From positions 11,882,867-11,946,866 of the forward strand of contig NC_081387.1 of NCBI RefSeq assembly GCF_030684315.1: a stretch of 64,000 bases of DNA. The letters are read 5' to 3'. The position numbers were made by a program, and so were the translations under genes. Source of the stretch: Stegostoma tigrinum (lineage: Eukaryota). Every line of letters starts with the position of its first letter. The first letter of the stretch is position 1. Under the pieces are notes generated by a model. It was not told where the DNA came from and searched no databases. It saw only the letters and a program-made list of their open reading frames with translations. Shown here one piece after another: positions 1,531-55,856 of this stretch.

Positions 1531-2079
1531 TCGCACAGCTCATCATCTTTAGAATCATTTCAATCTTGTTCCAAATCATTGTCTTTTTATCACATGAAAG
1601 AAGTTAGATGGCCTGGTGGCTCCGTGGTTAATACCGCCGTCTGAGCGAACACGTGTCTGCGTGGATTTCCTCCCCCAGTCGAAAGATCTATAGCTTCGGG
1701 CGATTGGCTGCACTAAATTGTTTTTAGTGTCCAGAGATGCGCTGGCTAGGTAGATTAACATGGAAAATGCAGGGTTCTGAGGTAGATTGGGACGCTCTTC
1801 TGTAAGTCAGTGTGCGTTCGTTGGGCCAAAGGGCTCGCTTCGACACTGAAGAGATTCGATAAATGAAGTGCCCCTTTTGTTTTTATTACGTTCGTTTGAA
1901 AAACAAGCAATTCCCACATGTTCTACAAACCGGGTTTAAAACCTAATATTTAACTCGACATCTTCTTCTTCTTCAAGCTATTTTATGATCTTACAACCAT
2001 GTAATAATTTACGCCTTCTTAAAGTTTACGAAACAACACACAATAACACCGTATGCAGTAACAGTAATTGTATCTTAGG

Positions 2080-2225
2080 AAAGGTAAATGCTATCCTTAC
2101 CTAGTCTGGCCTACATGTGACTCCAGTCCCACAGCAATGTGGTTGACTCTCAACTGTCCTCTGGGCAATTAGGGATGGGCAATAAATGCTGCCTGGTCAG
2201 TGATGACCTCATCCCGTGAATGAAT
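2080..2225 (+). mobile_element. Deu-type (SacSINE1-like) SINE fragment; related copies at ~24090-24440 (+), ~28215-28495 (-), ~35045-35210 (-)
   Basis: Shared core tctggcctacatgtgactccag...gggcaattagggatgggcaataaatgct; family name is from recall. Confidence 0.65.
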
Positions 2226-5200: not shown

Positions 5201-5666
5201 AAGACAATAAGACAACCCAAGAAGGCCCAGGAGAAGTAATTGGTGCAGGTATTATCCTTTCTCAGGCCGATAGTGCTTAATATAGAGTAAATATGTGGGA
5301 ATTTGGGAAATGTTTGCAAGACGTTAATAAGGAATAATTTTGCTAATAAAGTTGTATAGAACTGCAAACTAAGCTATGTGTCCCTCTGTCCACCTCACAG
5401 ACGAACGTACAAGGGTAAAGTGCTTTTAATACATAAACTGGTCCAAGTGCCCGAAGTACAGATAACAAGATGAACACATTTTTGACTAGATACTATGGCT
5501 CACTTTATTCATAGAGTTGCTCAAGATGATTTAATAAGTAACACCAATACTAGAGTAATTGAATTAGGAACTCAAGGCAGAATGATTGGCAGAAGAAGGT
5601 TAATTGGTGGGCACTTAATCTTCTGTCATTGAATATAATATGGTCGAACAAGTGGTAGAACCAACC

Positions 5667-7090
5667 TCAATTGGAACGGCATGAAAACAAAGTGGTGAGG
5701 AGGCAATGTTCAACCATTACGCTGTTGACAGCACTGCTGATTAAGAGTAGATGGATTGAACAACTCTTGGTTAGGTTAGATTTGTCCTGTGTATTTTTTT
5801 TTCTAAATACAGAGCATGCAACAGCAATTGTTGGAGGCATGTCAATATTCTCGTTGGGCTGGGGCAGCTCAGCTAGGAGTGTGGCTAATCCCGCGTCATA
5901 AATCTTCAGTGCTATTGCCGAAAAGTTGTCAAAGCCCACATCCTTTGAAGTATCCATTGCTTGCATCCGTTTCTTGATGTCACATTGAGTCAATCAAAAG
6001 GCTGGAGACAGTGAGTTGCGATGCTCCTTAACTTCTGAAGGAAGCTACGATGAATCATCCCCTTTGCATTTCAGTTTGAAGATGGTCACAAATACTTGAC
6101 GCATTTTTTCTATCCATTTTGTGAGAAGTGGGCATTGCTGGCTGGCCAGCATTTCTCAATAATCCCTGTTACCCTTGAGAAGGTGGTGGTGAGCTGCCTT
6201 CTTCAACTGGTGCAGGTTGACCCACAATGCCATACAGTAGGGAATTCCAGGATTTTAACCCAGTCACAGTGGAGGTATAGAGGTATCTTTCCAAGTCTTA
6301 TCTCTTACATCAACGTGTTGGGCTTGCCCATTATTGAGGATGGAAATATTTTTGAAGCCTCCTTCCCTTGTGAATTTTGTGTTCCAATGTTCGCGATTGA
6401 TTGTAGCAGAAAGACACATCTTAGGTCTGATCCCTTCGTTGTTCAGTCACTCAGCTCTGTCTATCACTTCTTTCTTGTGCTGTCTGCTGTAGAAGTAATC
6501 ATGTTTTGTAGCTTCAAGGGATTGGTATCTCATTTTAGCCATCCCTGCTTCTATCCAGATATCTACTCCTGAATTCTTCATTTGAATCACGACTGATCCC
6601 TGATGTTTTGGTAATGATAGAGAAGTTGATATTCCAGGCCAGGAGGGGCACATTGTGTTCGATTACAATTTTGCTGCGGGTGATGGTCTGTAGGGCCTCA
6701 GAGAAGCTGAGTCCTAAGTTGTTTGATCTGATCGATGTCTGTTACATTGAGCACGGCAATAGTACCAAACAGAATGATGTGTGCGCTCAGTGTGAAGTTG
6801 AGAATTTTGGTTCGAATAAGGACCATGAGGTCATCACTTCGACATCTATTGACATGGACAGATACACCTTGAACAGGCAGGTTAGTGAAGATGAGGTCAG
6901 GAACGTCTCCACTCCGTTTCCTTTGTTCCCTCACCATCTGCTACAGACTCAGTTAACAAACATGCCCTTTCGGACTCGATCAGCTTGGTCAATAGTGTTG
7001 CTGTCGAGCCGATCTTGGTCATTTACTTCGAAGGCCGCGGCCAGACAGTACATTTTGTGCTCCTGACATCCTGAGAACTTCCTACAAGCG
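5667..7090 (-). mobile_element. Decayed LINE ORF2 (endonuclease to RT region)
   Basis: ORF 5667-5993 resembles the LINE KAxGPDNIP...LA.L...KKQDKSNPxNYRPISLL region; many stops and frameshifts. Confidence 0.75.
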
Positions 7091-7329
7091 GTAATCAACA
7101 TTGATATTCGTCAGCAAAAGGAGTGAGCAACGAAGATGTCAGCAGATTTCATTCTCCGTGTTTCCAATTACAGCCACCATTGTACTCGATGGTTTGCGGA
7201 TTAATGGGCGAGTCAATGAGAAGATCTCCTATGGAAACTTCATCCCGGCTGTCTGCCTCTGAACAGCCACCTCTGCTGGTCTGTCTGCCGTTAGAGCAGA
7301 GCCGCACTAAAACAGGAAATGCGAGAAGC

Positions 7330-7706
7330 ACACAAACGGGCCGGATGGTTTCTTTTGCGGAATCAGTTGCTCCTGCTTCAGGGAGTCGATCTGAAATGTT
7401 AAACAAACTGCTTCTCCCTCCCAGCTGCCAAAGCCATCCGGCCTCGGAACTTCGCGTAAACTCCGTCCAGGGCGGACTTCGGGACACACCACTACGCAGA
7501 GCGGCCGAGCGGAGGCTTTCGGTTCGGTCTCCATCGGGAGGACTTCAACCGGGATCTTGAGTTCATGTCGCACTACAGGTGACCCTACAACACTACACAC
7601 TCTCACATAGACTCATCCCTCACAAACACATACTCTCAGGTGGCACACAGACTCTCGCAAGCACGCACATACATACTCATACAAACACACACTCCGCACG
7701 CGCGCG

Positions 7707-7737
<31 letters not shown>

Positions 7738-7850
7738 AGTCATAAGCACACGAATATGGACATATATTCTATTTTGTTCAGAAAGCACACAATTTGTAGA
7801 CAATGTGGCATTTTATAAATCTCTACTTTGGAAATAAAACAAGTCTGATT
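7330..7850 (+). mobile_element. Penelope-like element 3' end (GIY-YIG C-terminus plus CA-rich tail); paralog at ~32230-33320
   Basis: HPASELRVNSVQGGLRDT...RRAAER here, and EDGLNRDLAFMSHY in the paralog. Confidence 0.75.
7695..7738. repeat. (CG)n(CA)n alternating purine-pyrimidine microsatellite
   Basis: cgcacgcgcgcgcgcgcgcgcacacacaca... seen directly. Confidence 0.95.
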
Positions 7851-21083: not shown

Positions 21084-21773
21084 GTAAGAAGTCTAATTAA
21101 TGCACTTACTGGAATTATATGGAAAGCCAGGCAAACGTTGAAATGTATGAGGCTTGTATTTGCTGAGGCATGGAACATGTCATATTAGCAATTTATCACT
21201 GTCAATTTAATTTCTGTCAATTACGTGCAGTTGACATTGAAATTACGGGATTTCAAGGGCAGTGATTACTATTTTATATGAATTGAAAGATTTTAATATC
21301 CTTGTAATTGGTGCGCCTTCAAAATATACGACTGTAACATCAACTAAATCATCACGTGGTGAAAACATGAACTGTTGTTTTCGTTTTGCAATGGAAGGAT
21401 CGCACAGTATACCATATAGTTTTGAAATTCATGATCCAATGTTCGATAAAACTGGATAACCTCAAAGATTATATATCTCCGAAAGTGAATTAGCTCAATG
21501 GCGCGATTATCCTCCATCATCTTCGTCAATGTAATTTCATCTTATTTATAAATCTATCACAAAACGATAAAGTCGTTGAATCAAATTTCCCATAGTGGGA
21601 AAGCTAATCACTTCATTTTGGTGTGTGAATGTCTGCACAAACTTTAGACAAATACACGTGACTGTTCCGTCGTTTGAATTCCAATAATTGATTTTAGCGA
21701 GAATATTTCATGCAGACCCCACAACGTCGCACGTGTCTTACTTCAGAGTGAAACGTTGCTTGTTCTTTTACAG

Positions 21774-22112
21774 CAGTGACTGCTGAGAACATCAAAGTTC
21801 TTCAAAGCCCGGCATTTGTTAAGGTAACCGAGGGGGCGACGGCCGTTATGCACTGTGCTTACGAAGGATCTAGTGGGCCGAGTGTCTTCAGATGGTTCAG
21901 GGAAGATACAAATGGAACCGAACTTGGTAACAGCACAGCACAGTACAGAGGCCGGGTCACTGGGCCAATCAGGGAAAAAATCGACGGAAGGACGGGCGCC
22001 TGGATTCAACTGGTTAATGTGACATTGAGCGATGAGGCGACCTATTATTGCAAAGTGGAATTTGTCTCAAGCGGTGAACATTATGGACCAGGAACGACAC
22101 TTTTTGTTACAG
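21774..22112 (+). CDS. NCR3/NKp30-like gene A, exon 2: germline-joined VJ-type Ig domain
   Basis: Acceptor ttcttttacag, donor G|GTGAG, 339 nt, phase 1-1. Has B-strand Cys (MHC), C-strand Trp (FRWFR), GTELGNSTAQYRGRV (human NKp30 has GKEVRNGTPEFRGRL), DEATYYC and the J-like YGPGTTLFV. Confidence 0.93.
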
Positions 22113-24855
22113 GTGAGCCTGCATCACGCTGCTACTTTGAACGATGAAGTAGTCTCATTGAGGTGCCTTTAGTTCACACACCCTCTCAGAAGTCAATCTT
22201 ACACTAGCAAAGGTCCTACAGACACAACTTCGCAAATTAAGGCATTAGAAAACCAGATATTACAAACTCTGAGATTGTACTTATTTATCCCACCATATTT
22301 CTTGAATGTAGTCTACAGTCACACAACTCGAATAATTATTTTGATTCTATCTTCGACATAGAGGCTACAAGGAACATTGCACCAACAGCTGTAGATTAGG
22401 AAGTGGGAAAGAGAGATGTTTTTGAAGTTACAATCACCAGGGAAGCGAGCTGTCACGGCGCCAGATCCTGCTCGAGCTCTCATGCCTTCTTGGAAGAAAT
22501 GGCCACTTATCCCATAGATACATTGGTGCTAACTTTCCAAAGTTCGCCGGATTCTGGGAAGTTTTGAACGGGCACGAATGTGACAAATCGAATCAAGAGG
22601 GAGGGAAGCAGAAATTCCCAAGTTATAAGCAGGTACACTAGTCACATGTCGCTAGAAATCGATCAGCAAGCTGAGATTTAGTTGATAATGGAGGAAATCT
22701 GAAAGTCGTTAGGAAGTAAGAGTGGCGTTTTAGAAAGGTAATCATGATCAACAGTTTACCAGAGTGCTATGGATGTACTGCACTTGGACTTCCAAAAGAC
22801 ATTTTGCAAGGTATCATGTTCTTTCGGAAAATCTGTCAGGGGCACGGATAGACATTAGATGTGTGGCTGGGAGAAAGTGGAGAATACGTGTGCATAATTT
22901 CGTTTTGTTTGCTAAGCTGTGATGACTGGCATCCTACAAATGTCTGTTCTGGGGCCTATCTTTTTGCAAAGTATGTCAATGACATGATTGAGCCGACCAA
23001 AAGCAGACGACTATGCTGACAGATTACTCAGAAATCTGGCAGATGGAGTTCAATGAGGGGGAAAAGTGAATACAACAGCCTTCGCCTGACCTAAATGGCA
23101 AACAAATGTAGGATACAGAGTTGGAAATAAACCTAGCGCAAGAATCACATGAGTTCGCGTGCAGGACAGAAAGCAACGAAAACAGAGATGGTTAAAGAAA
23201 GTCAGTAGTCTGGCAGTATCTGCGAGAAAGAATCAGAGTTAACATTTCGAGTCCACTGACCCTTCTTCAGAAATTAATTCAGTTGACTAATGCAATGCCA
23301 TCTTTTAATGCGATAAGTTCGATAATAAAAGTTAGTACGTTAGGTAGCAGGTGTGGTGGTGGGGTCACATCATTAATACTGTATAAACGCTCCTTCCAAT
23401 TGCAGTTTAAAATAACTGAAAACCCCGGAAGTACACCACATAACTAACATGCCAACAGCATGCGGGGAAATATAAAAGTGTCTCGCCTTCAGGTTTAATC
23501 TGAGGTCAGAAGATATGCAGATTTTAAACGACCTGATTCGATTCTTCCACGGTATCAATCCTGTCAGCTTCATGAATTTAGCATTTGATTGCATGCTGAA
23601 GTGATCCAATACCCAAGCTTTCTGACCATTCCAGCCAAGCCCTTCCTTGAGGAGTGCGTGCGCTGTGCAGGAATAAATGGTCGCCGGTGTCTGTTTTAAA
23701 CAGATTTCACTGCGCCGAATGTGTGCCTGTCAAATGTTCGCTTGACCAATCCTTTGAAAATTGACAACATCGCCAAACGGCGCCAAGACCAGCTCTGTTA
23801 AGGTCAATGGAAGAAATGGAGAGTCACCGTGGTCCGTTTGTCCCTGACCAGTTCTGTGTAAATTCACTGAACAACGAGAGCGTGACATCGGTATGGACCC
23901 CACCCCGTCCGAAATATTTCTCTTCCGTATCAGAGTGGTTTTGAGCGACTCCCTTTTGGTTTATAGAAAACTAATCGTTTAAAGGCTACGGTTGAGAGTC
24001 AAAGGTTGGATTAAGGAAACACGTTTCTTGAAGCAAAATGGAATCTGAGAATATTAATTTAAATTAACTTGCACGGCGGGAAATGGGAGAGGAGGGGCGA
24101 TGGTCTCATGGTAGTATCAATAGACTGTTAATTCAGAGAATCAGCTAAAGTTCTGAGGACCCGGTTTTAAATCCTGCAATGGCAGTTGGTGGAATTTGAG
24201 TTCAATATAGAATTAAGGATCTAAGGTTTTGTTATCAATCATGAATCCATTGTTGATTGTTGGAAAAACCCATCTAGTCAGCTAATTTCCTTTAAGGAAG
24301 GAAATCTGCCATCCTGACCAGATCTGGCCGACAAGTGACTCCAGGCCCCACAGCACGTGGTGCACTCTTAACTGTCCTCTGGGCAATTAGGGATGGGCAA
24401 TAAATACTGGTCTAGCGAGACACGTACATATCCTGCGAGTGATTTGTTTTAATGCATTCTGTTCGCTGGAATACTGCCCAGTAATCCGCCCGTACTAACT
24501 AGCAACGCAGTCAGTTTAGGAGAATTCAAAACTAAAGGGTGAAACTTTCAGGTGAGAGGAGAAAGACTTAAAAGGGACCTGAGGGACAACGTTTTCACAC
24601 AGTTGGGACGTGGAATTGCTGACAGAGGGAGTAGCAGGTTACAGTAACAATATTTAAAAGACATTTGGACAGGTACATGAATAGGAAAGGTTTAGAGGGA
24701 TAAGGGCCAAATGCAAATTAGACGGTCTCGTTTAATTTGGGAAAGTTGCTTGACACGGACGAGTTGTACCAAAGGGTCTATTACCGTGCAGTCTGGCTCT
24801 ATGAGAGTAGGCTAGGGCAAAAAGAAGATCAATGACATCTGTTTCCTTCCGGCAG

Positions 24856-24987
24856 CGAGGAGCAGAAATCACACATCGATCATTGCCAAGGGTAGACGGA
24901 CAGCCCTGGTTGTAACAACAGTGGGATTTCTACTGACCGCCCTCTCAGTGATAACTATTGTCATCTCATGCCGGGACGAAGCGAAAG
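24856..24987 (+). CDS. NCR3-like gene A, exon 3: stalk plus transmembrane
   Basis: Acceptor tttccttccggcag, donor AAG|GTGCAC, 132 nt, phase 1-1. Translates (A)RSRNHTSIIAKGRRTALVVTTVGFLLTALSVITIVISCRDEAK. Confidence 0.8.
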
Positions 24988-26962: not shown

Positions 26963-27039
26963 TCTGCTCAACAGGTTTCCTGCCTCAACTACCCCGCCAG
27001 GTAGTGCACCCCAGATTTCTAACATCCCCAGGGTGAAGT

Positions 27040-30000
27040 TTGTTTTCCTCAACTCACACTAAATTCTTTTTACCTTAAAATTACAACCCTTTATAGCTAA
27101 CCCTTCAAATAAAGAGAACAGTTACTTTCTACCTATACTGTTCATGTGTCTGATCATTTTTTATTCATCAATTATGTCCTCTCTTAGCCTTTGTTGATGT
27201 GCTGAAAACAACCTAAGCTTATCCAGCCTCCATTCATAGCCAAACCACTCCACTTCAGGCAACATCTTCGTGACTCTCCTCTGCATACCCTCCAACACAT
27301 TGACATCCTTCCTTTAGTGACACAGAACTGTAACAGGTTCAACATATCTTCTCAGCTTTTATAATCTATGCCACGACTGATAAAGACTAAAGTCCCTTAT
27401 GTTTTCAGAACTATTACAAACCTATCACCTTCAGGGATCTGTAGACAAACGCTCTAAGATCCCTCAATTCACCTGAACTTCCTAGTGTCCTGCCATTCCT
27501 TACATACTGTTTGTCTTTTTATTTCCCTGAACGGCACCAGCTCACATTTATGACGGTTAAATTCCATCTGACAGCAATCTACCCATATGACCAATCTTTC
27601 TATATCCTCCTGTAAACTAGGACATTCTTCCTCACTGTTGACCACCTGGTTAACCTTTGTGTTGTCTGTAAACTTATATATCATCCGTCCCCACCCTCAC
27701 ACATTGTCTTCCATATCATTTGTGTATATCACAAGCAACAAAGAGCTAAGCAATCACCTCTTTGGTACACTACTGAACGCAGGCCTCCAATCATACAAGC
27801 AGATTTCCAGTATGGCCTTATATCCCCATACAGCAAGCCAATTTTGGATCCGCCTTGTCAAGTTACCCTGGATCCCATGGGGCTACGTTTTTTTTATCAG
27901 TCTTTCCTGTGGAACCTTGCCAAAGGCCTTGCTGAAATCCATACAATTGCCACCAACCATACTATCCTCATGTATACACCTGGTCACCTCCTCGAAAATT
28001 CCTATCGATTTTTTAGGCATGTCCTCCCTCTAAAATCCATGATGACAATCCCAAATCAAACTTTGCCTCTCCAAATGGAAATTAAGTTCCTCCTTCAGAT
28101 TTTATTCAGTCAGCTCCTTGCCACTGATGTTTGAGTGGTAAGAGGCGGTTACAGAGTAAATTCCTGGAATTTGACCCAGCATCATGCATAATTAACATAA
28201 TTCCCTCACTTTTAATCATTCACACATAAGGGGCATTGCTGGCTAGGCAGCATTTTTTTCCCAGGGGGCAGTTAAGAGTCAACCACATTGCTGTGGGTCA
28301 GGACTCAAATGTAGGGATGGTGTTAGTGAACCAGGTAAGGTTTTTACCCCAACAATCGGCAAGAGATTCATTGACGAGATTAATTCCAGATATTTATTGA
28401 ATTCAAATGCCACCATTGAAGCCAAGTCCCCAGAATGTTAATTGGGTTTCTGGATTAACAGTCCAGTGATAATACTTCCAGGCTATCACCTCCCCATTAG
28501 TATCACCCTGTGCCAATATTCAACTCTGCCAAAAAGTCTCAATAACCTGATCAACATCTTCAATTGATAAAATGGTTCCTTACGAAACGTGTCTTTACCA
28601 TTGAGATAGCTCGCATTGTTCATTATCTTCTGAATCATTTCAATCTTGTTGCAAATCACTGTCTTTTCATCACATGCAGTAAGTTGGGTTGTGTGGTGGC
28701 TCAGTGGTTAGTATTGCCGCCTCACAAAACATGTGTCTGCGTGGATTTCTTCCCGCAGTCCAGAAATGTGCATGTTAGCAGGATTGGCCATGCTAAATTG
28801 CCCATGGTGCCCAGGGACGTGCAGGCTAGGTGGATTAGCATGGTAAATGCAGGGTTACAGGAATAGAGTGGGATGTTCTTCCGGAAATCGGTGTGCACTT
28901 GATGGGCCAAATGACCTGCTTCCACGCTGTCGAGATCCTACGAATGAATTGCACCTTTTGTTTTTATTACGCTCATTTGAAAAGCAAGCAATTCCCTTAT
29001 GTTCTACAATCCGGAAGTAAGCCCTAATATTTACCTGGATTTTTTTTTCTTCAAGCTACTTTATGATCTAAAAAAACCCATGCAATAAATTACATCTTTT
29101 TAAAATTTAGGGAGCAACGTACAGTTACACTATCTACCCTAACACTAACTATAGTTTCCGAGGACTCAGACAGTGACCGCCCAACTTCGGATTCTGTGGT
29201 CGATAGAGTGCTACAAGATTCTAACTAAGTTAATACATTTCACGTCTTCAGGATTGTAACTTAGTTTAGTTAATAGTACTGTTATCGTGCTTGTCAGCAA
29301 TTCCTCAACTGTAGGGTATTGATTCTTGACTGAAAACGCTGACTGAGAACAATTTGCAGAGGAAACAGAAAAGAGATGCACCTACTCTGTGAATATTTCG
29401 AAAGTATGAATATGTATTAATATCTCATGGTTCTTCAGTCTATCCATCTAAGCTTCATAACATTAATGCTAACGTTATAAATCACTCCGAAAAATTCATC
29501 GGAATCATTACATGGAATGTTCAAAACTGTTATCGTTCCTTAATATGTTATGATGATTCTAAGACACCGAATTACTAAACTACTCATGACATATTCTTCA
29601 ATTTAGTTGTATCCACGTTGTTAACCATTTTTGTTCACTTGGTATTTTTTTTTTAAAAATGGAGCCAACATCCAAAGAGAAAGACAAGTTGGCATGCAAT
29701 TTGTTGAAAGATTTATATTAATTTCAATTACCTTGATATCACTGAATTATGTATGAACATAAGCAAATGGAGAAATTTAATTCAAAGTTTGTGTGGTCCT
29801 CCGTCTAACTTCATAACTCTAATGCTAACAGTATAACTGGCCAGCATTTTGCGCCCATTCCAGTTACCCTTGAGAAGGTGGTGATGAGCTGCCTTCTTGA
29901 ACTGCTGCAGCCCACCAGTCCATTGACTCACAATGCCACCAGGGAGGGAATTCCGGTTTTTGACCGAGTGAAGTGAAGGGAGGGGGATATATTTCAAAGC

Positions 30001-32960
30001 CATTATCTTTTACATCAATGTGTTGGGCTTGCCCACGGTTGAGGATGGAAACATTTTTGAAGCCTCCTTCCCTTGTGGGTTATTTGTGTTCCAATGCTCA
30101 TGATTGGATGTAGCAGAACAGCAGATCATTTGTCTGATCCCTTTGTTGTTCAGTCACTCAGCTCTGCCTATCCATTCTTTATAGTGCTGTCATGAAAGTA
30201 AGCATGTTTAGTAGCTTCAGCGGATTGACACCTCATTTTAGCTGTACCTGCTTCTGATCGAGGCATCTACTCTTGCATTCCTCATTGAATCAGGACTGAT
30301 CCCTGATGTTTTGGTAATGCTAAAGAAGTTGATATTCCAGGCCGTGAGGGGCACAATGCATTTGAAAACAATTTTGCTGCGGGTGATGGTCTGTAGGGCC
30401 TCAGAGAAGCTGAGTCCTGAGTTGTTTGATCTGATCGATGTCTATTACATTTAGGACGGCAATAGTACCAAACAAAATGATGTGTGCGCTCAGTGTGAAG
30501 TTGAGACTTTAGTTCGAATAAGGACCATGAGGCCATCACTTCGACATCTATTGACATGTGCAGATGCACCTTGAACAGGCAGGCTAGAGAAAATGAGGTC
30601 AGGAATGTCTTCACTCCATTTCCTCTGTTCCCTCACCACCTGCTACAGACTCAGTGAACAAACGTGCCCTTTCAGACTCCATCAGCTTGGTCAATAGTGT
30701 TAGTGATAATGGGAACTGCAGATGCTGGAGAATCCGAGATAACAAAGTGTGAAGCTGGATGAACACAGCAGGCCAAGCAGCATCTCAGGAGCACAAAAGC
30801 TGATGTTTCGGGCCGAGACCCTTCATCAGAGAGGGGGATGGGGAGGGGGTTATGGAATAAATAGGGAGAGGGGGGGAGGCGGACCAAAGATGGAGAGAAA
30901 AGAAGATTCGTGGAGAGGAGAGTATAGGTGGGGAGGTAGGGAGGGGACAGGTCAGTTCAGGGAAGACGGACAGCTCAAGGAGGCGGGATGAGGTTAGTAA
31001 GTAGGAATGGAGGTGCGGCTTGAGGTGGGAGGAAGGGATGGGTGAGAGGGAAAACAGGTTAGGGAAGCGGAGACAGGCTGGGCTGGTTTTGGGATGCAGT
31101 GGGGGGAGGGGACGAGCCTGCCTGGTTTTGTGATGCAGTGGGGGGAGGGGAAGAACTGGGCTGGTTTTGGGACGCAGTGGGGGAAGGGGAGATTTTGAAG
31201 CTTGTAAAGTCCACATTGATACCATTGGGCTGCAGGGTTCCCAAGTGGAATATGAGTTGCTGTTCCTGCAACTTTCGGGTGGCATCATTGTGGCACTGCA
31301 GGAGGCCCATGATGGACATGTCGTCTGAGGAATGGGAGGGGGAGTTAAAATGGTTCGCGACTGGGAGGGTCACCTGCACATCTGCCAATGTGGTATACTA
31401 TATTCATTGTACCCGGTGTGGCTTCCTCTACAATGGGGAAACCATGTGGAGGCTTGGGGACCGCTTTGCAGAAAACCTCCGCCTCCGCCCACTGCATCAC
31501 AAAAACAGCCAGGCTCGTCCCCTCCCCCCAACTGCGTCCCAAAACCAGCCCAGCCTGTCTCTGCCTCCCTAACGTGTTCTTCCTCTCACCCATACCTTCC
31601 TCTCACCTCAACCCGCACCTCCGTTTCCTACCTCCTACCTCATCCCGCCTCCTTGACCTGTCCGTCTTCCCTGGACTGACCTATCCCGCCCCCCACCTCC
31701 CCACCTACACTCTCGTCTCCACCTATCTTCTTTTCTCTCCATCTTCAGTCCGCCTCCCCCTCTCTACCTATTTATTCCAGAACCCCCTCCCCATCCCCCT
31801 CTCTGATGTCTAGGCCCGAAACATCAGCTTTTGTGCTCCAGATGCTACTTGGCCTGCTGTGTTCATCCAGCTTCACACTTGGTCAATAGTGTTGCTGTCG
31901 AGCCAATCCTAGTCATTCACTTCGAAAGCCGCGACCACAGAGTGCATTTTGTGCTCCTGACATCTTTAGAACTTCCTACAAGTGGTATTCAGCATTGATG
32001 AGTATCGATTAGTCAGCCAAGGGAGCGAGCAACGAAGTTGTCAGCAGATTTCATTCTCCACATTTCCAAATACAACCACTATTGTACTGGATGGTTTGCG
32101 AATTTATGGGGGAGTCAATGAGAAGATCTCCTGTGGAAACTTCATCCCGGCTCTATGCCTCTGAACAACCACTTCTGTTGGTCTGTCTGCCGTTAGGGTA
32201 GAACCTCATCAAGAGAGGAAATGCCAGAAGCGCACAAACGTGCCGGATGATTTCTTTATCAGCATCAGCTGCTTCAGGGCGTCTACCTGAACTGTTAAAC
32301 AAACTGATTCTCCCTCCCAGTGGGGGAACACTTCAGCCGTTAAAGCCATTCGCCCTTAGAACTTCGCATAAAAGTCCTCCCAGGCCCACTTCGGAATAAC
32401 CAACAATGCAGAGTCGCCGAGCAGAGGCTGATAGCCATGTTCGGTTCTCATGAGGATGGCCTCAACCGGGATCTTGCGTTCATGTCTCACTACAGGCGAC
32501 CCCGCCGCACGATACAATATCACTCACAGTCTCACACAAACACTCTCTCACACGCTGGCATACGCACACAAATACACTCAAACACACAAACTCACATGGG
32601 CACTCTGTCTCACACACACACACTCTCCCTCACACTCAATTGGTACACACTCTCAGTCAAGCACACACACACGCAGACACACACACACTTTCTCCCTCAC
32701 ACTCAATTGGTACACACTCTCAGTCAAGCACACACACACGCAGACACACACAGACACACACACACACTTTCTCCCTCGCACGCGCATAAAGGTACGCACA
32801 CAAATATATGAATCTGTGGGGTGAATTTGCAGATTTGTAATAGCAGATGTTTTCTATTTTGTTCAAAAAGAGCACAATTTGTAGACCGTCAATGTGGCAT
32901 TTTATAAATCGGATTTATATAAATCGCATTTTATAAATGGAAATAAATCAAGTCTGATTT
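27040..32960 (+). repeat. Segmental duplication, copy 2 (immediately downstream of gene A)
   Basis: Same order of unique and repeat blocks as 5-7850. Lacks about 3300-6120 of copy 1 and carries its own SINE and PLE insertions. Confidence 0.9.
30702..31877. mobile_element. Inverted Penelope insert (GIY-YIG 3' ends in opposite orientations) with 16-bp TSD
   Basis: TSD cttggtcaatagtgtt at 30686-30701 and 31878-31893; the empty site is seen in copy 1 (~6984-6999). TCTSANVVYYIHCTRCGFLYNGET on +, VANHFNSPSHS...LGTLQPNGINVDF on -. Confidence 0.93.
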
Positions 32961-34186: not shown

Positions 34187-35723
34187 CAACACATTGCAAT
34201 GGCAGAAAATGATGTGGATCAGGCCAATTAACTACACATTTTAGGGTAAGGAGAAAACCGATTTGGAATAAATATCGTGGAGTTTTAGGAATAAATTTAA
34301 TACCAGAAAGTCAGGAATGCACTCTTGGTCAGACGAGAAAGTATTAAGCAATTTCTTCCATTGCATCACATCTTGGGTCACGGCTGTTTTCACACAGAAG
34401 ATGAGCGGTCATTTTCTCCGCACACTTTCATGTTCAACTCGAATGCACAAGACAGAAATAGATCTGAGTATAAATATTTGGGCAACGATTCTGCCTTCTG
34501 GTAACAACGTTCTCAATGCGTTTTATTTATCTGATTATGTCCGAATAGATTGTCCATTGTTCGCTGTTAGCAGGACCCCATGCAAAATAACCATTGGGAA
34601 TTTCATTCATTTTGTAACGCAGCATTTAAAATTCCAGACGGCCCTTGCTGTCCATGCAAGCTAATGCGTTTATCTGATTCCCATCGCTATTGTGTTTAAA
34701 TTCGGATTTCGGCACCGCTACAGCACGCTCTCGCTTTCCTTTGCAGCAAGCAATAAGAAGAAGGTCAATCACTGAAGGAGCCAAGAGCATTTTTGTGCAG
34801 CTCACTACATAGTCAAATGTTACAAGTATTCTTCAAAAGTATTGTGGAGGGTTTGCTTATCATGATCATACCTAGTGAAAAAACTGTTCTTTGTATAATT
34901 TCAGAATCTAGTGGTAAGATGCAAATTGCCTCTCTGGCCTAGGCATCATAAGCATGTATGGAATACATGATCCAGTATCTCTAATTCACAGCATTATGCA
35001 ACAGTAACACAATATTTCATATAACTACATGTTTTTATTTTTCTTTATTCATTCACGGGATGAGGGAATCCTGGATAGACAGCATTTATTACCCATCCCT
35101 AATTGCCCAGAGGGCAGTGGAGAGTCAAACACACTACTGTGGGTCTGGAGTCACATGTAGCTGTGCCAGGTAAGGATGGCAGTTTCCTTCCCTAAAGGAC
35201 ACTAGTGAACAAGGGATTGATATATTTCTTCATTTGTTTCCAACTACTTTTAAATATTTATGACTTAAATTATCATTTCAAGTTAGATATAGTAGGTATT
35301 GAATGAAAATTAAACCTATCTCGGTAGTAAAATTGCCATCGTACAGTGACCACTTGTAAAGTAGGTAACTGGATTATAGCACAAACAATTAATCTATATT
35401 TACACTACTAACTATGTGAAATGTGGAAATAACATGGTCCCACTTGTATGCTTTATGCTCACTTTTGTTTCGATCATTTATACATTGACGTGGAGATTTT
35501 ATGCTGTTAGAAACACACGGAAGTGGTTATGCTCCAATTCATCGCATGTGCCAGTTAATCCAAAGTTGGTTAGAAGCAACACATTGCAATGGCAGAAAAT
35601 GATGTGGATCAGGCCAATTAACTACACATTTTAGGGTAGGGAGAAAACCGATTTGGAATAAATATCGTGGAGTTTTAGGAATAAATTTAATACCAGAAAG
35701 TCAGGAATGCACTCTTGGTCAGA
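34187..35723 (+). repeat. 147-bp direct repeat (34187-34333 / 35577-35723), one mismatch
   Basis: caacacattgcaatggcag...gcactcttggtcaga occurs twice. Confidence 0.95.
34862..34913 (+). pseudogene. Candidate decayed leader exon of NCR3-like gene B
   Basis: ATG plus 52 nt ending in phase 1 at GTAAGA, the same length and phase as the gene C leader. The peptide MIIPSEKTVLCIISESS is only weakly hydrophobic. Confidence 0.35.
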
Positions 35724-36680: not shown

Positions 36681-37012
36681 AAGGAAGTTCAGTATTTTGG
36701 GACATCCAACGGTGAAAGAACAGTGACGTGGTTTGATGTGAAGATGCTGTGTTGCTGAAAATTGAACCTGCAACTGGTGTTGTTATTCTGTTCTGGTAGC
36801 GATCGTCTTGAAGGTGCTGTTGAAAGAGGTGCCCTGATTGGATGCACTGCATTTTGCAAATAGGGCACACAATATGGTGGACAGGTATGTTAGAAATGCA
36901 TTGTTAAAAATTACTGGCACCAAAATAAGTGATTCTGAAATCTATTATTGTGAAATAGAGTACACGACTTATGGAACAAAGTATGGGTCAAGAGCAAATC
37001 TTATCATGAGAA
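36681..37012 (+). pseudogene. NCR3-like gene B, disrupted VJ-type Ig exon
   Basis: After cctctag the 5' half reads GSSVFWDIQR*KNSDVV*CEDAVLLKIEPATGVVILFW*R (stops, B-strand Cys missing). After a frameshift the 3' half reads ALLKITGTKISDSEIYYCEIEYTTYGTKYGSRANLIMR (DxxxYYC and a decayed GxG). Weak donor gtgttt. Confidence 0.8.
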
Positions 37013-46038: not shown

Positions 46039-47100
46039 TTTTTACTGGCCTGACTCATAACTCAGTTCAGGAAAAATAATTTATGTCTCACTGACTCCTG
46101 CTGAGCTCACTGGAAAGAAGAATATGTCATTGAAGGAATCCCAACAGACCGGAAACAGGCCCTTTGCCCAACCAGTCCACACCGACCCTCACATCCAGGC
46201 CCATCCCCCTAATCTACTCATCCCTGGACACTATACCGTGAACAGTCCACCTAACCTTCAGGCCTCTGGGCTGTGGGAGGAAACCGGAGCACCCTGGAGA
46301 TACCCAACCAGACACGGTGAGAATGTGTAAACTCTACACAGACGGTCGCCCAAGGGTGGGATCAAAATGGGGTCCCTGGCGCTATGGGGCAGCAGTGCTA
46401 ACCGACGAGCACTTTATTTCTCCCTGTGCCGCCACTTTATTTCTCTCTGTGGAGATCACGCTGGAGAGGGAGGTCGTCTATCTCCTTAAACTCCAAGAGA
46501 CAGCAACCTTTTGCGAGTTGCTGCACCATACCGACTGCAGTGACTGAAAGACTCGTGTCATCTTCTAAGAAGACCATGGGGGTCCACAACCGGAGTCCAC
46601 TTCGAAAGAATGAATAAGATGCATGCAGCCACTGGGGGAGCCAACGAGCGAATTCCATCCGATGGTGGTTATGCGGGGCGTTTAAGGCAACAGAAAAAGA
46701 CAACCATTGTAGGGAAAGATAAATTTGCAATAGGCATATTTGGTGGAGAAGGATTTTTCACAAGGCCTGAATGCTCAATATTATAGTGTCTCCTCGTAGA
46801 AGAAATATTCACCAAAATAAAATGCAAAAGGATGATTATTACCTCGCTTATAATCATACTCGTAGCAAATCAATTTCACTATTTTACTGGCCTGACTCAT
46901 AACTCAGTTCAGAAAAAATGATTTATGTCTCACTGACTCCTGCTGAGCTCACTGGAAAGAAGAATATGTCACTGAAGGAATCCCAACAGAGCGGAAATAG
47001 GCCTTTTGGCCCAACCAGTCCACACCGACCCTCACACCCAGGCCCATCCCCCTCATCTACTCATCCCTGGACACTATACCGTGACCAGTCCACCTAACCT
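46039..47100 (+). repeat. ~220-bp direct repeat (46039-46257 / 46881-47100)
   Basis: ttttactggcctgactcataactcagttcag...ccacctaacct occurs twice. Confidence 0.92.
46140..46405 (-). mobile_element. HE1-type SINE
   Basis: ctgtgggaggaaaccggagcacc...gcagcagtgctaacc is the reverse complement of the HE1 core and head. Confidence 0.8.
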
Positions 47101-49181: not shown

Positions 49182-49287
49182 CTTTTCCGATGCAAGTAGA
49201 CTGCGCCGAACACACCGCCGACACCCAGTGAAGTCAGCAATACCACACGAACACACCACAATATCTGCACGTCGCTCATGTTGTCTC
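49182..49287 (-). CDS. NCR3: NCR3-like gene C, stalk plus TM exon with intramembrane Arg
   Basis: Acceptor ctctaactccatag, donor AG|GTAAGA. Translates (R)DNMSDVQILWCVRVVLLTSLGVGGVFGAVYLHRK, with Arg placed as in NKp30 VLLLRAG. The cytoplasmic exon was not resolved. Confidence 0.88.
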
Positions 49288-50551
49288 CTATGGAGTTAGA
49301 GAATCACTTTATAATCTGTAAACCGCTACCTGACTCGAGGCCAAGAAACTAAAAGCACCTTCAGGGGGAGATGTAGCCTCCACCGCTGAGGTGGCAACAG
49401 ACAGGGCAGATCCTTTAGTCATTTCCGTCCTCCCTCAATCAATCACCGGTAAGGCACCAGAATCTACCTTCTGATCGCCAAGATTTGATTCATGATGCCG
49501 GTTGCCCCTTTGCTCAATGCTTCCTCTCCTATCTCATCCAGCTCGCCTGGAAAATGGCTCTCCTTGAAAGTTTGAAGATAGTGCAGTGTTTTTGTTTTGG
49601 TCGTTGGTGACGTTTTCTCGGTAATGTCTGCGCTGTGGTTTAATAGCCATCCCCCTAGTTATCCCGGATACGGCGATTCTGAGCCGTCTTCTTGAAGATG
49701 TGGGCTCAATGGGCTGAGTGGCCTGCTTCTGCAGCGTGGGGATTCTACGGTTCTAAGGAAGCAAGAGCCGGGGTCTTTGCGCTGCAGGCCCACTAACAGT
49801 GCTGTTAGGAAGGAAATGCCGGGGTTTTCACCCAGATGCAGCAAGAGCGCTTTAGCTCCAAGTCAGGGTGGTATGTTGGTAGGGTGGTGGGTGGGGTGGG
49901 GGCGGGCGGGATCTTGCAGATGCCCCTGGATCTGGGACCCTTTGAAAGCAGCGTCACCTCACTTGGCTGGTCGCGTGGTTTGCAATGCAGCGACCCATGT
50001 GTGAGCTCAATCCACCCTCAGGCTGATGTTACCATGAAGGTCTCTCCCCTCTCATGAGATGCTGTGACCTCTATGTTTAACCCGTAATCAATCATGTCTC
50101 TTTAATGAGCGATCAGCCCTATTGACTTCGTCATTCTCGAGGTCGCGGGTGTGGACGGAGGATTTGTGATTTGCTGCAGTGTCCCTTGTAGGTGGTAGGC
50201 ACGGCTGTCACTCCGAGATCTCAGATATTGCAGCTCCGCTGGATTTTCAAAAATCGCATCAGGGCTTCTGCGAAGAATCACTGGTAGCTGGGCTGAAGGA
50301 GCTTCACTTGCCGATCACCTCCCTGGCATCCCGATGGTTGTCATTTCGAATGTAATCCGAGTATCGGGCGTGACGCTTAATGAGTGGTAGAAGCAACAAT
50401 CTTTTTTGAAATCCCGCCAGGGCCTATATTTTAATATGTCCAGCAATGATAAAAAGTAAATTGGAAGACCAGACGGTAACATCGGGGTTAAAAAAAAAAC
50501 TTTTAGCCATTTAAACTATCCATGAAACAACCCAGGGCAATTTGCTAAGGT

Positions 50552-50768
50552 AATAAAATGTGAGGCTGGATGAACACAGCAGGCCAAGCAGCATCTCAGG
50601 AGCACAAAAGCTGACGTTTCGGGCCTAGACCCCTCTCTGATGAAGGGTCTAGGCCCGAAACGTCAGCTTTTGTGCTCCTGAGATGCTGCTTGGCCTGCTG
50701 TGTTCATCCAGCCTCACATTTTATTATCTTGGAATCTCCAGCATCTGCAGTTCCCATTATCTCTGATA
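50552..50768. mobile_element. Penelope-terminus fold-back insert: 82-bp perfect stem, 14-bp TSD
   Basis: Arms 50551-50632 and 50645-50726, 12-nt loop; TSD caatttgctaaggt at 50538-50551 and 50769-50782. Confidence 0.95.
50635..50666 (+). ncRNA. Minimal hammerhead-ribozyme motif in a PLE terminus
   Basis: CT-CTGATGA-A-GGGTCTAGGCCC-GAAA-C-GTC-AG. Confidence 0.7.
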
Positions 50769-50886
50769 CAATTTGCTAAGGTTTGGGCTCAAAGGGCGTA
50801 CATAATCACTACTAACGGGCGAGGAGCGGTTGGCTAATACCGCAGGAGCAGCTTCTTATGACATTAATACCGATAAATAAACTTAC

Positions 50887-51225
50887 TCATCACAATCAGT
50901 GTGGTCCCTGTTCCATAAGCTTCTCCCATCCCCATGATCACTACTTTGCAGATATAGAACCCGGCGTCCTCTGGTTTCAGATCGATGATTCTAATCGAGG
51001 CGTCTCTCCTCTCCGTGAAGTCCGCTTGACTCGCCGCAAACACCCGGCCTCGGAACTCCGCTGTGCTGTTGGAGACTTCATTCCCCCGCTTGTTTCCCCG
51101 GTGCCACGTGTAGCTGCCGATGCCGCTGGGTCCCTGATACGTACAGTTCAGGGGCGCTGTCTCCCTGGACGCTTTCTTGAGTGTTCCCGGGCTCTGAACT
51201 ACTACGATATTTCCAACAGAAACTT
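50887..51225 (-). CDS. NCR3: NCR3/NKp30-like gene C, intact VJ-type Ig exon (absent from the ORF track)
   Basis: Acceptor cgcttacag, donor A|GTAAGT, 339 nt open: VSVGNIVVVQSPGTLKKASRETAPLNCTYQGPSGIGSYTWHRGNKRGNEVSNSTAEFRGRVFAASQADFTERRDASIRIIDLKPEDAGFYICKVVIMGMGEAYGTGTTLIVM. Matches NKp30 hallmarks IGSVTW, GKEVRNGTPEFRGR, YVCRVEVLGLGVGTGNGTRLVV. Confidence 0.95.
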
Positions 51226-51949
51226 CTGTAAGCGGATGAAGTAAATAAGGTGCAGAGTGAGACGCATGCTTCGTGAAAATTATTGCCTACTGCAACAAGC
51301 AGGAGCGCTCATGTCTTACCGAATAATCATTTTAAAATTAACCATGTCATTCTGAAAGAATGGGATGCATGCATTGCTAATCTTCCAAATCCAAGGTCTG
51401 TTCTCAACAGCAATTTAATCGGCCGCTGTATACTTGAAAGTACTATCGACAGCATACAGCTGCTTTGGTCAGTTGATGTTCAAGCATAATACTCGAAAAA
51501 ACGTTAACAAGTCGACTGTGGCAAGCCCATGCGATTCAGGCTATAAACAGCCAAACGTCTATTGCATCAGTACCCATCCGAAGTTTTAATTGCAATTGAA
51601 GTAGTCCCACCATCAATATTAATTGCATGCGCTCTCCCTTATTTCTATCATTTGGAAACTCATCGTCTTCGTTGTTTGGTACAGTAGCTTCTTGCTTTCA
51701 AATTGCCTATTGATCGATCTTACTGCACTCCATGGTTTGTCCCCCTCTCAACAAACAGAGAGAATTTCAACTCTGCCATTTATAAAAATGTTTGCCATGC
51801 CCCTTTCCCCAAGCAGCCCTCCACCCCCCCAAAAAAACACAAACAGACCCTGTTTACACCGAAGTTCAGACATGAAACAAAAAGCCAAAGTATGGCGGAT
51901 GTTGGAAATCAGGAACTGCTGGAAAATCTCAGCGGGTCTGGTAGCACCT

Positions 51950-52272
51950 CATAGAGTCATCACAGGCCCCTACAGTGTGGAAGCAGGCTGTTCTGCCCAT
52001 CGAGTCCACAAAGATCCTACGAAGAGCATCCCACCCAGACCGATCCCACTACCCTACATTTCTCATGGCTAATCCAACTAACCTGGACCGCATGGGCAAT
52101 TTAGCATTTCCAATCCATCTACCCGCCACATCTTCGGACTAGGAGGAAACCTGAGCACCCGCAGAAATCCATGCAGACACGAGGCAAATGTGCAGACTCG
52201 AGCCAGACAATCATCCGAGGGCGGAATCAAACCTCGGTGCTCGAGCTGCGAGACAGCAGCGCGACCACCGAT
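51950..52272 (-). mobile_element. HE1-type SINE inside a palindromic PLE-derived element
   Basis: gggcaatttagcat...ggaggaaacctgagcaccc; the host element resumes at acatctgtggagagaaag. Confidence 0.8.
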
Positions 52273-53192
52273 CCAAAATGCCAGACATCTGTGGAGAGAA
52301 AGCAGAGTGAACGTGTCAAGTATAATGACACATGTTCTGAAGAAGAGTCACTGGACCCGAAGCATTAAATCTGCTTTCTATCCACAGATGCTGCCAGACT
52401 TGTTGAATGTTGCCAGGAATTTCTGACTTTAAGTCAAACGTGGATATTTTACTTACTTGTTCACCGGGAGACCTAGTCGTTGCTCGACTTCGGTATTTTC
52501 CAGGCCAAATATATTGGCAAAAGTTATCCCTTGCTGTGGAAATTGGCCTGATCCGTATGTTTTGAAGCTTAGCACAGTGTGTTAACAACATCATGGCTCC
52601 ACTATCTAATAATCCGTTTCTTTTTCCTTCACTGTTCTGGTAAATACTTTGCCTGTCGGCTATTAACTTATCAATAACTAAGAATTAAGGAGAATGTAGG
52701 AAGTGTAGTTTAGAATAGTTGCTATCTGTGTTACTCCATTGGGTGTTTTTCCTTTACGGTCAGTTGCAAAGAATAGAACGCTAGTTTGATAGTTCCAGGT
52801 TGGTTGTTCAATGATTATTGAACGCGTGTATATATTTCCCATTATCCATTATCAAGTTCCGTACCGAATGAATCATTTCAAAATCTGGCAAACGGGTCAC
52901 TCAGAAGAATTATTATTTTAACAGATACCGCCCTATTGATGCATCCGGATTCCACCACAAACATCAAGGGTGTTTGAGTTTGACAACAGAGCACCACAAG
53001 AGTAACACTCTGCCTTCCTGATTCAAGTCTGATAAGACTTCCTCGGAACTGAAGAAGTCACTTCAGTCCTGAAACATTGACTCAATTTCTCCTTCCACAG
53101 ATGCTGTCAGCCCTGCTGAGCTTCGGAAGCACTTTATCATTTTTTTCCCGCCAGACGCAGTTTATGGCACAGAAGTCGAATAATAAATTTAC

Positions 53193-53524
53193 TTGTCACG
53201 ACCAGTGTGGTCCCAGTTCCATGGGCTTCACTCATCCCCACAAGAGCTAATTTGCAGACATAGAACCCGGTGTCCTCCGGTTTCAGATCAATCATTATGT
53301 TGGACGCGTCTCTCCTGTCCCTGAAATCCCCTTGGCCCGCCGCCAACACGCGGCCTCGGAACTCCGCTGTGTTGTTGGAGACTTCATCCCCCCGCTTGTT
53401 CCCCCGGTACTACCTGTCGCAGCAAATGCCCCTGGGTCCCTGATGCCCAGGCGCGCTGTCTGACCCGGCGTTTGGGTGAGAGAGACCGGGCTCTGAATAG
53501 CTGCGGTATTTCCAACAGCGACTG
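53193..53524 (-). pseudogene. Dead tandem duplicate of the gene C V exon
   Basis: 332 nt = 339 minus 7. The 7-nt deletion removes the B-strand Cys codon and shifts frame. The conserved Trp codon is TAG (53410-53412). The 3' half is still EVSNNTAEFRGRV...EDTGFYVCKLALVGMSEAHGTGTTLVVT. AG and GT ends are retained. Confidence 0.92.
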
Positions 53525-54327
53525 CTTAAGTGTACGACGTAAGCAAGTTACAGAGCAAGGTGAGATGCATCTTCCACGAACATTATTTTACAAAGCAATG
53601 CTTTCAAGACTAACCCTGTCATACTGAAAGAATGGGAAGCATGCAGCGCTAATCTTCCAAATCCAAGGGATGTTGTTCAAAACAGCAAGTTAATAAGCTG
53701 CTGCGTATGAGAAGAACATGGGCTTCAATGCGGTGCTATAAACAGCATGCAACTGCTGTGGTCAGTTGGTGCATTCGAGCATAATACTTGAAATAATCTA
53801 ATTTAAAAAGTGGACTTTGGCAAGCAAATAAGGCCCAAGCCATTTACACGCAAACCTTTGTTACTAAAGTTCCCAACCTACCTTCTAATTGTATTTTAAG
53901 TAGTCCCGCTATTAATGTCTATTGTTCATCCCACGCAATAGCGCATGTTTCTATTAATTAAAACGCATCGCCTTTGTTTTCGCTGCCACAGTTTCTTATT
54001 TTAAAAATTATCTTTTGACCGGTCCTATTGCTCTTCAAGGCTTTATCATAACAAAACGACAGAACTTTACCTCTGCCACTTGTGAGTAAATGGTTGTCAT
54101 GTCCCATTATACCATCACCTCCATTCCGCCGCAGAAATATTCGCACCCTGATTATTCTAAAACTCAAATATCAATCAAAAATCCGAAGAACTGCGGGTGC
54201 TGGAAGACTGAAACAAAATCAGAAATTGCTGGATAACCTGAGCGGGTCTGATAGCATCCGTGTGGAGACGTAGAGTTAGCGTTTCGGGTGCAGTGGCACG
54301 TGTTCTGATGAAAGATCATGCTACCCA

Positions 54328-54625
54328 GGGCGGCACGGTGGCTCAGTGGTTAGCAATGCAGCCTCACAGCGCTACGGATCCAGGTTTGATTCCAGCCTCG
54401 GGTAACTAGCTGTGTGCAGTTTTGCACGTTGCCTGTGTAGGTTTCCTCCGGTTCCCTACCACAGTCCCAAGATGTGCAGGCTCGATGGATCGGCCATGCT
54501 GAATTGTCCGTAGTGTTCAGGGGTGTGTGGGTTATAGGGCGATGGGACTGGGTGGGATGCTCCAAGGGGCGGTGTGGACTTGCTGGGCCGAGGGGCCTGT
54601 TTCCACACTTCAGGGAATCTAATCT
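54328..54625 (+). mobile_element. Near full-length HE1-type SINE
   Basis: tRNA-like head gggcggcacggtggctcagtggttagca (A box), ggtttgattcc (B box), core ggatcggccatgctgaattg; short direct repeat ctaccc on both sides. Confidence 0.9.
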
Positions 54626-55289
54626 ACCCGAAGTATTACCTACTTTCTCTACACAGATGCTGCCAGACCTACTGAAGCTTTCCAGGAATTTCTGGTTTTG
54701 AGTCAAGTTTGCGATGTGTTTATTTGTTCACCAGAAGAGTTGATCGTTGCTCGATTTTGCTCTTTTCCAGCCCAACTACAATGACAAATTAGTCCCTTGC
54801 TGTCGGAAATGACTGCTTGCTTCGCATCTTAGTACAATGTGTTGACACCGTCGTGGCTCCAATCTCTAATAATCCGTTTAATTTTTCCTTCATTGATCTG
54901 TTAGATTCGTTGCACATTGTCAATTATCTTTTCAACAACCAAGACTTAAGAAGAATGCAAAAAATGCGACTTAGGCATTGTTCCTATCTGTATTGCTTCA
55001 CAGTATGCTTCGTCTGTAGGGTCATTTGACAAAAGAATAGAGTACAGGCGGTTTCAGGCTGATAGTTAGCAATTATTCGGCTGTACAACTTTGACATCGG
55101 CATATTCCTCTATGGAATGAATCATTTCAAAATCTGGAAGAATGCCGACTGGGTAAAGTACATTTTAACACTTACTTATGTATCGAAGTTCCATCATCAG
55201 CACCAAGGGTGCTTGACTTTTGCACGTGAAAGTAGATAGTAAAGCACTACAGGTGCAATATGCTACATTTCTGAATAGAGACCCGATAT

Positions 55290-55592
55290 AACCTCGGCTA
55301 TACTCTCTTCCACCCTCTTCTGTCGGGCAGACAACGTAAGTTTGGATACTCGTACGAATAGATCCAAGAACAACTTCTTCCCGGCTGTTATTAAGCATCT
55401 AAATGAGCCTCTCCAGTTTTAAATTTAATATTCATGGTGCTCTCTGTGCACCTTCTCTGCAGCTGTAACATTGTACTCCTCGCTCTGTTCGCTTATCCCA
55501 ACGCACTTGTATGTTACGATCTGCTTGTGCGGCACGTAAAATAAAAACTTGTACTGTACCTAGGTACGTGACAATAATAAATCAAATCAAAC
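55290..55592 (+). mobile_element. LINE 3' end (Rex/Babar-like) with (atcaa)n tail
   Basis: aagaacaacttcttccc.gctgtta... and gtgacaataataaatcaaatcaaa; clade assignment is from recall. Confidence 0.6.
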
Positions 55593-55804
55593 TGAAACAT
55601 GATTTCTGCGGAACAGAAGTAGAGTCACTTCAGCTTTGAAACATTGACTCTCTCTTTTCACAGGAGCTGTCAGTCCTGCTGAGTTTCTGATTTTTACTTC
55701 TGGGTTCCAAAAGCAGTAGTGTTTTTCTTTAATGCTACATTTCTGCGCTGGGTATCTACGATCTACTGTGTGAATAAATAACTTCGCTTTAAACGCTTCC
55801 TTAC

Positions 55805-55856
55805 CTGTGATCATTGTCATTATCCAGATTGTCCTAGCAACGTAGCCAGAGCTCAT
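55805..55856 (-). CDS. NCR3: NCR3-like gene C, exon 1 (leader MSSGYVARTIWIMTMIT)
   Basis: Kozak-like gacaccATG, 17 codons plus G, donor GTAAGG (phase 1), upstream of both minus-strand V exons. Confidence 0.75.

Follow-up and report, generated by a model that had tools for sequence, protein, structure and literature searches.

Exons of the locus and the family of the gene

The stretch of 64,000 nucleotides from the shark Stegostoma tigrinum analysed here (the window; assembly GCF_030684315.1, contig NC_081387.1, positions 11,882,867 to 11,946,866) contains part of a cluster of NCR3-like genes. One gene of the cluster lies on the minus strand and consists, in the order of transcription, of a leader exon, a broken variable-domain exon (pseudo-V), an open variable-domain exon (V), and an exon for the stalk and the transmembrane (TM) segment, which includes an arginine. 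The coordinates given in a preliminary description of the same DNA were all confirmed on the minus strand.

55856-55805, minus strand: leader exon of a split leader, 52 nt, phase 1, followed by GT; its terminal eight residues are those of Chiloscyllium punctatum GCC38509.1
53524-53193, minus strand: pseudo-V exon of VJ type, 332 nt, AG and GT ends, tandem AAG-CAG acceptor, weak donor
51225-50887, minus strand: open V exon of VJ type, germline-joined, 339 nt, with both cysteines, the tryptophan and the J motif
49287-49182, minus strand: exon for a short stalk and the TM segment, 106 nt; the TM arginine is of the activating type by the arginine-adaptor rule (PMC6514059)
47416-47647, minus strand: tentative candidate for a cytoplasmic exon, with an AG acceptor and an open frame of 76 codons to the stop

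The leader, V and TM exons form a single continuous open frame. The preliminary description had found no second leader between the two V exons, and the search of the V-V intron for a separate promoter and leader gave the same result. Eight leader peptides had no convincing match in this intron, and the only similarities to the DNA of the promoter and leader were two chance words of 12-15 nt (E 0.19). For the donors of four ATG..GT candidates in the intron, the energy of the duplex with U1, a crude measure of donor strength, is -5.3 to -5.8 kcal, compared with -11.5 kcal for the real leader. Remnants of a stalk, TM or tail exon, as carried by the inhibitory-type relatives, were sought between the V exons and none was found.

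By its sequence, the gene is a member of the NCR3/NKp30 family, for which binding of B7H6 and signalling through ITAM adaptors are also characteristic. A search with the 3' part of pseudo-V matched one protein among 201 candidates, the NCR3 of nurse shark (QTT61898.1), and the open V was assigned to the family by comparison with proteins found through pseudo-V. The nurse shark domain shares 76% of its residues with V and 70% with pseudo-V, and the two exons of the window are 62% identical to each other. The best four of 59 Protein Data Bank matches to a profile made of five relatives and this 3' part of pseudo-V are NCR3 chains, with human NKp30 on top. The Pfam V-set domain is recognised at 45 bits (cut-off 26), the J motif is within the same non-rearranging exon, and V is placed among the shark NCR3 V domains in a phylogenetic tree.

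NCR3 has been characterised as a non-rearranging VJ gene linked to the major histocompatibility complex (MHC) (PMC12227049, PMC10751288). In human NKp30, a single IgV domain is combined with a TM arginine through which the receptor pairs with CD3-zeta or FcR-gamma; the variation of the tail arises by splicing (PMC6514059). The shark locus resembles it in the germline-joined VJ domain encoded by a single exon, the split leader, the short stalk, the TM arginine characteristic of the activating form of NCR3, and the position in a multi-gene cluster. It differs in possessing two V exons, one of which is dead, where the human gene has one. MHC genes were not recognised within the window. The closest sequenced shark relatives that include a TM segment (P0001-P0003, P0005) have it uncharged, most of them with tyrosine motifs in the tail, and the TM segment and tail of the locus match none of them. 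The literature that we consulted does not describe a shark NCR3 gene with a dead V exon; the study of shark NCR3 by Kinlein et al. 2021, or its supplements, may already cover multi-V or pseudo-exon loci.

Lesions, duplication and splice signals of pseudo-V

Pseudo-V is a full-length immunoglobulin (Ig) exon with disabling lesions in an otherwise open gene, as are the members of the class of skipped pseudoexons. The following features of the minus strand, together with a pair of repeats, describe its decay, its origin and its splicing.

53447/53446, minus strand: 7-nt deletion that takes out the codon of the first cysteine and shifts the frame
53412-53410, minus strand: nonsense change of TGG to TAG (tryptophan to stop) in the ancestral frame, a second lesion beyond the frameshift
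53297-53295, minus strand: TAA stop in the shifted frame of leader plus pseudo-V, 102 nt upstream of the exon end
55690-53182, minus strand: copy 1 of a duplicated unit (most of intron 1 and pseudo-V), found by self-BLAST; its intron blocks are 66-78% identical to copy 2
53127-50876, minus strand: copy 2 of the unit (intron 2 and V), found by self-BLAST
53416-53408, minus strand: cryptic donor CAG/GTAGTA overlapping the nonsense TAG, cut at 53414/53413, -7.8 kcal; predicted in-frame mini-exon of 111 nt, 53524-53414
54339-54615, no strand assigned: interspersed repeat of high copy number in intron 1, opposite in orientation to its copy in intron 2
51968-52275, no strand assigned: inverted copy of that repeat in intron 2, 64% identical; the pair flanks pseudo-V

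Inclusion of the whole exon would bring in the TAA stop about 100 nt before the junction, as the preliminary description had noted and the computed 102 nt confirms. The distance from the stop to the last junction thereby exceeds 50-55 nt, and the transcript would be the candidate for nonsense-mediated decay (NMD) that it was said to be. The deletion, the stop and the acceptor of pseudo-V are identical in the contigs of three of four read runs, which are genomic DNA of one sample and possibly the source of the assembly; the fourth run has no cover there. Contigs of two runs bridge the 3' end of pseudo-V into intron 2, and three gaps in repeats are unbridged among the pieces listed. The runs behave as genomic DNA, and exon joints are absent among the 15 of 396 pieces listed. 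The presence of the lesions in the read contigs argues against an assembly error but does not amount to independent support. Single-base differences between the window and the run contigs were observed at 51828, 54931, 55016 and 55995 and are likely to be heterozygous sites.

The two copies of the unit are 69% identical over 1120 nt, with more intron blocks aligned outside this segment. The unit had been described as holding only V and intron, which is correct, and it covers nearly the whole first intron together with the V exon. Similarity to the flank of V stops about 50 nt past pseudo-V, and similarity to intron 1 starts about 80-110 nt after the leader, so the leader narrowly escaped copying. 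Over 108 codons, pseudo-V and V differ by a synonymous divergence (dS) of 0.35 and a nonsynonymous divergence (dN) of 0.20, and the two longest intron blocks have diverged by 0.31 and 0.35. A synonymous and intron divergence of about 0.3-0.35 indicates that the duplication is old. The dN/dS ratio of 0.58 (95% bootstrap interval 0.36-0.98) suggests that both copies were once constrained, seemingly for much of the time since the duplication. The ancestral length of both V exons is 339 nt with phase 1-1, so a transcript of leader, V1, V2 and TM would have been in frame. A source from which template switching could have produced the cluster of changes near 53432-53408 was sought in the window and not found. 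At homologous places in both units (54209-54705 and 51906-52430) lies the same interspersed repeat, bounded by short inverted arms and reversed in one unit relative to the other. This points to a local inversion within one of the copies.

Both splice ends of pseudo-V are weak. The preliminary description had reported that the exon keeps its AG and GT ends with a weaker acceptor, and the donor was found to be weak as well. The acceptor has changed from CAG to AAG and has 11 pyrimidines in 17 positions, compared with 13 for V, and a spare CAG lies 3 nt downstream. Annotated isoforms of relatives differ by one alanine at the acceptor position, which fits a tandem acceptor. The donor CAA/GTAAAT has drifted from G to A at position +5, lacks G at position -1, and forms a U1 duplex of -1.8 kcal, compared with -5.1 kcal for V, -9.5 kcal for TM, and the value of the leader given above. 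Among the 16 GT sites of pseudo-V, the cryptic donor has the highest predicted strength; it was strengthened by the change of TGG to TAG, and the homologous site of V has -1.5 kcal. Joined to the leader, V and TM, the 111-nt piece gives an open frame. In 5000 random windows of 230 nt, an in-frame site as strong was present in 6% and any such site in 15%, so the cryptic donor is no more than a lead. The earlier claim that the dead copy must be skipped stands for the full-length exon and falls as a general statement: the cryptic donor would allow an in-frame piece of the exon to be used, which weakens the argument that inclusion must poison the transcript.

Full-length pseudo-V is likely to be skipped by default, to judge from its splice signals. 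The repeat pair that flanks it has a predicted duplex energy of -317 kcal, compared with -175 +/- 8 kcal in 40 shuffles, and might help to loop out the exon. The repeat is of very high copy number, so the placement of the pair is likely to be due to chance.

Origin and present state of the gene

Based on the layout, the divergence of the copies and the comparison with relatives, a history of the gene can be proposed, to which we give about an even chance. In an ancestral NCR3/NKp30-family gene, intron 1 and V would have been duplicated in tandem long ago, producing a two-domain receptor with both V exons spliced in together. The outer, leader-proximal V would have lost its function later. Pseudo-V would now be ignored by the splicing machinery since its acceptor and donor have drifted, perhaps with the help of the inverted repeat pair, and rare full-length inclusion would be cleared by NMD as noise rather than control. 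The remaining product of leader, V and TM is predicted to be a single-V activating receptor that may pair with CD3-zeta or FcR-gamma. This is probably ordinary decay within a gene family and not a new control device. The reading of the locus as the remnant of a two-V receptor, one of those put forward in the preliminary description, finds support in the two 339-nt exons of phase 1-1, the dN/dS ratio, and the common occurrence of multi-V models in the family.

Among 158 proteins compared, 20 of the 115 with a family domain of at least 70 bits have 2-5 such domains; of these 20, three are isoforms of a single gene and another (P0009) is probably a fusion of two genes. Named models belong to Mobula (5 and 2 V), Heterodontus (3), Scyliorhinus (2), Chiloscyllium plagiosum (2), Bombina (3) and Lissotriton (2). 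Multi-V NCR3-like models of rays, sharks and amphibians (P0010-P0016, P0022), with two to five V domains, bear the database labels pIgR-like, turtle-like, SIRP-like or uncharacterized. The models XP_043533794.1, XP_067865773.1, XP_038671255.1, XP_062903898.1 and XP_053577099.1 have tandem VJ exons behind one leader, like the locus; they differ from it in that they are predictions, belong to other subfamilies, and have every copy open.

The V domain of C. punctatum GCC38509.1, which follows the matching leader end, is intact, in a model that lacks a TM segment. It shares five sites with pseudo-V alone, two with V alone, and five with the inhibitory paralogue of its own species. As a separate observation, in Chiloscyllium (P0002, P0003, P0004) five residues are common to the V that follows the matching leader and the inhibitory-type V of the genus but differ in the V domains of the window and the nurse shark, which hints at gene conversion between paired receptors.

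A similar arrangement is found in the KIR family of natural killer (NK) cell receptors, whose domains are of the C2 type. All lineage III KIR2D genes have a pseudoexon for a lost D0 domain that is kept out of the mRNA (PMC2194033), and exon 3 of macaque KIR1D, from which 5 bp are deleted, is constitutively skipped although its splice sites are intact (PMC6288254). KIR2D genes with pseudoexon 3 and the shark locus share the order of leader, dead membrane-distal Ig exon, working Ig exon or exons, and TM, and an ancestor with one more domain (PMC2194033). The skipping was demonstrated by cDNA for KIR and is deduced for the shark locus; moreover, the families are unrelated, and the dead exon of the shark is a tandem copy of its neighbour that looks recent. 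In an NK receptor family unrelated to KIR, the shark gene appears to have arrived at the same result.

Several observations weigh against this history. The surviving V has an arginine (51166-51164) at a position with glycine in 136 of 143 aligned domains, and a proline (51154-51152), three residues before the first cysteine and in what we take to be strand B, that is found in none of the 143; duplicate isoforms and some distantly related domains are among those aligned. Both codons were confirmed by contigs of all four runs. A 15-row tree did not separate pseudo-V, V and their relatives and rejected none of six groupings (approximately unbiased (AU) test, p 0.07-0.39), so it does not establish orthology with the C. 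punctatum V. A two-V protein with a TM segment of the exact subfamily was not found among six matches, and homologues of the tail exon and the TM exon were not found among the 158 proteins compared. The multi-V relatives are predicted database models, their count is inflated by the isoforms and the probable fusion, and the weakness of the pseudo-V donor is read from a coarse energy estimate. The alternatives considered below are not fully exclusive of each other or of the history outlined above.

The two rare changes in V raise the possibility that the whole gene is decaying. According to this explanation, which we consider unlikely yet the most credible of the alternatives, the gene is a pseudogene in progress in which both V exons are deteriorating and the second is still in frame, so that there is nothing to skip or regulate. 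At 68 columns that are invariant in four relatives, V has 8 changes and pseudo-V has 12. V begins with glutamate directly behind the leader, a place at which the residue is small or hydrophobic in the four relatives examined, and the signal hydrophobicity of leader plus V is 1.59, compared with 1.90-2.08 in the four relatives. The weaker signal peptide and a further decayed V in the window (36853-37008) agree with a dying gene, and NCR3 is a pseudogene in most mice (PMC6514059). However, the glutamate start and the lower signal hydrophobicity are also expected of a former inner domain and thus count for the proposed history, and the gene has kept its open frame from leader to TM, both cysteines, the tryptophan, the J motif, the TM arginine, and the strong donors of its leader and TM exons.

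It is improbable, in our estimate, that the locus was formed by a deletion that fused two tandem single-V genes. In that case the sequence from just behind the first V to just past the second leader would have been lost, and a two-V receptor would never have existed. A deletion of this kind yields the same junction, and no site unites pseudo-V with V against four relatives. In the tree, pseudo-V is joined with low support (73/76) to the V of nurse shark, whose gene has a different, uncharged TM segment and a tyrosine-bearing tail that are absent from the window. Against the fusion, a clade of pseudo-V and V is not rejected (AU p 0.33), leader or TM remnants are missing between the V exons, and V tandems arise repeatedly in the NCR3 family; a V tandem of its own is present in the C. 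plagiosum relative of the neighbouring gene (support 99/95).

We regard it as very improbable that the nonsense change built a donor through which the first 111 nt of the dead exon are recycled in frame, restoring the ancestral end of the signal peptide and adding a spacer of 37 residues before V. The cryptic donor surpasses the true donor of the exon and the homologous site of V, and use of the open mini-exon frame would raise the signal hydrophobicity from 1.59 to 2.25. Nevertheless, the site was noticed post hoc and is of a kind that random sequence provides at the rate given above, the acceptor has weakened, and the 5' part of the exon (codons 1-28) has no extra conservation (74% and 70%).

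Equally doubtful is a relic of mutually exclusive V choice, in which a non-rearranging VJ receptor would have been spliced as leader-V1-TM or leader-V2-TM. The single leader, the two homologous exons of the same phase and the inverted repeat pair around the first exon are compatible with such a choice, and tandem homologous Ig exons recall those of Dscam. However, joint inclusion is in frame and the intron is 1967 nt long, hence neither NMD nor steric hindrance would enforce exclusion. Three annotated isoforms of the 3-V gene of Heterodontus all retain three V, and V suits the leader less well than pseudo-V does. The inverted pairs detected are derived from repeats only, without a docking and selector pattern of competing RNA structure. 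An exclusion mechanism and conserved flanks, as in systems such as Dscam and the poison exons, were not found at the locus. The earlier proposals of splice-based V diversification and of a poison exon that tunes expression found no positive evidence, and the related V behind the matching leader of C. punctatum is intact.

Least probable of all is the regulated poison exon of the preliminary description, a stop-bearing exon like BRD2 exon 3b whose inclusion selection maintains to cut expression through NMD: the stop, the surviving AG and GT, and the spare CAG agree with it, but any frameshifted relic would pass the stop criterion, both splice ends have drifted from consensus, the flanking introns of the two window copies have diverged as much as synonymous sites, so that the maintained splice sites and conserved exon and flanks of poison exons are lacking in this comparison, the related C. 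punctatum V is intact, the strongest donor within the exon gives an in-frame product, and the frameshifted macaque KIR1D exon 3 is constitutively skipped with intact splice sites (PMC6288254).

Remainder of the window and significance

Outside the gene described above, the window contains one further gene of the cluster and a remnant.

21773-22111 (V) and 24855-24986 (TM), plus strand: second gene of NCR3-like type; its single V is open and its TM exon uncharged
36853-37008, plus strand: decayed V remnant, a 3' half with the second cysteine and a J-like motif, with stops upstream

The closest C. plagiosum relative of the second gene (XP_043533794.1) has two tandem V domains and an arginine-bearing TM segment. 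Positions 1-7742 and 27036-32638 form a large old segmental duplication, with blocks 74-85% identical, and remnants of tail-like exons at 3083-3187 and 3782-3838 resemble inhibitory-type tails. Recent local direct duplications involve 34187-34333 and 35577-35723 (99%), and 46040-46257 and 46882-47100 (95%). The V-TM intron of the minus-strand gene contains a near-perfect inverted repeat of 185 nt (50547-50730, 96%) derived from a common repeat.

The locus is prone to wrong gene models, which is a warning to annotators. A new mechanism would be indicated only if RNA revealed the mini-exon or regulated inclusion of pseudo-V. If the proposed history is correct, the locus would be a small case of convergence, in which a shark NKp30 paralogue shed its outer Ig domain as the primate KIR2D genes did. 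It would add to the signs that the number of V domains varies among the NKp30 relatives of cartilaginous fish and amphibians, whereas the human receptor has a single V domain.

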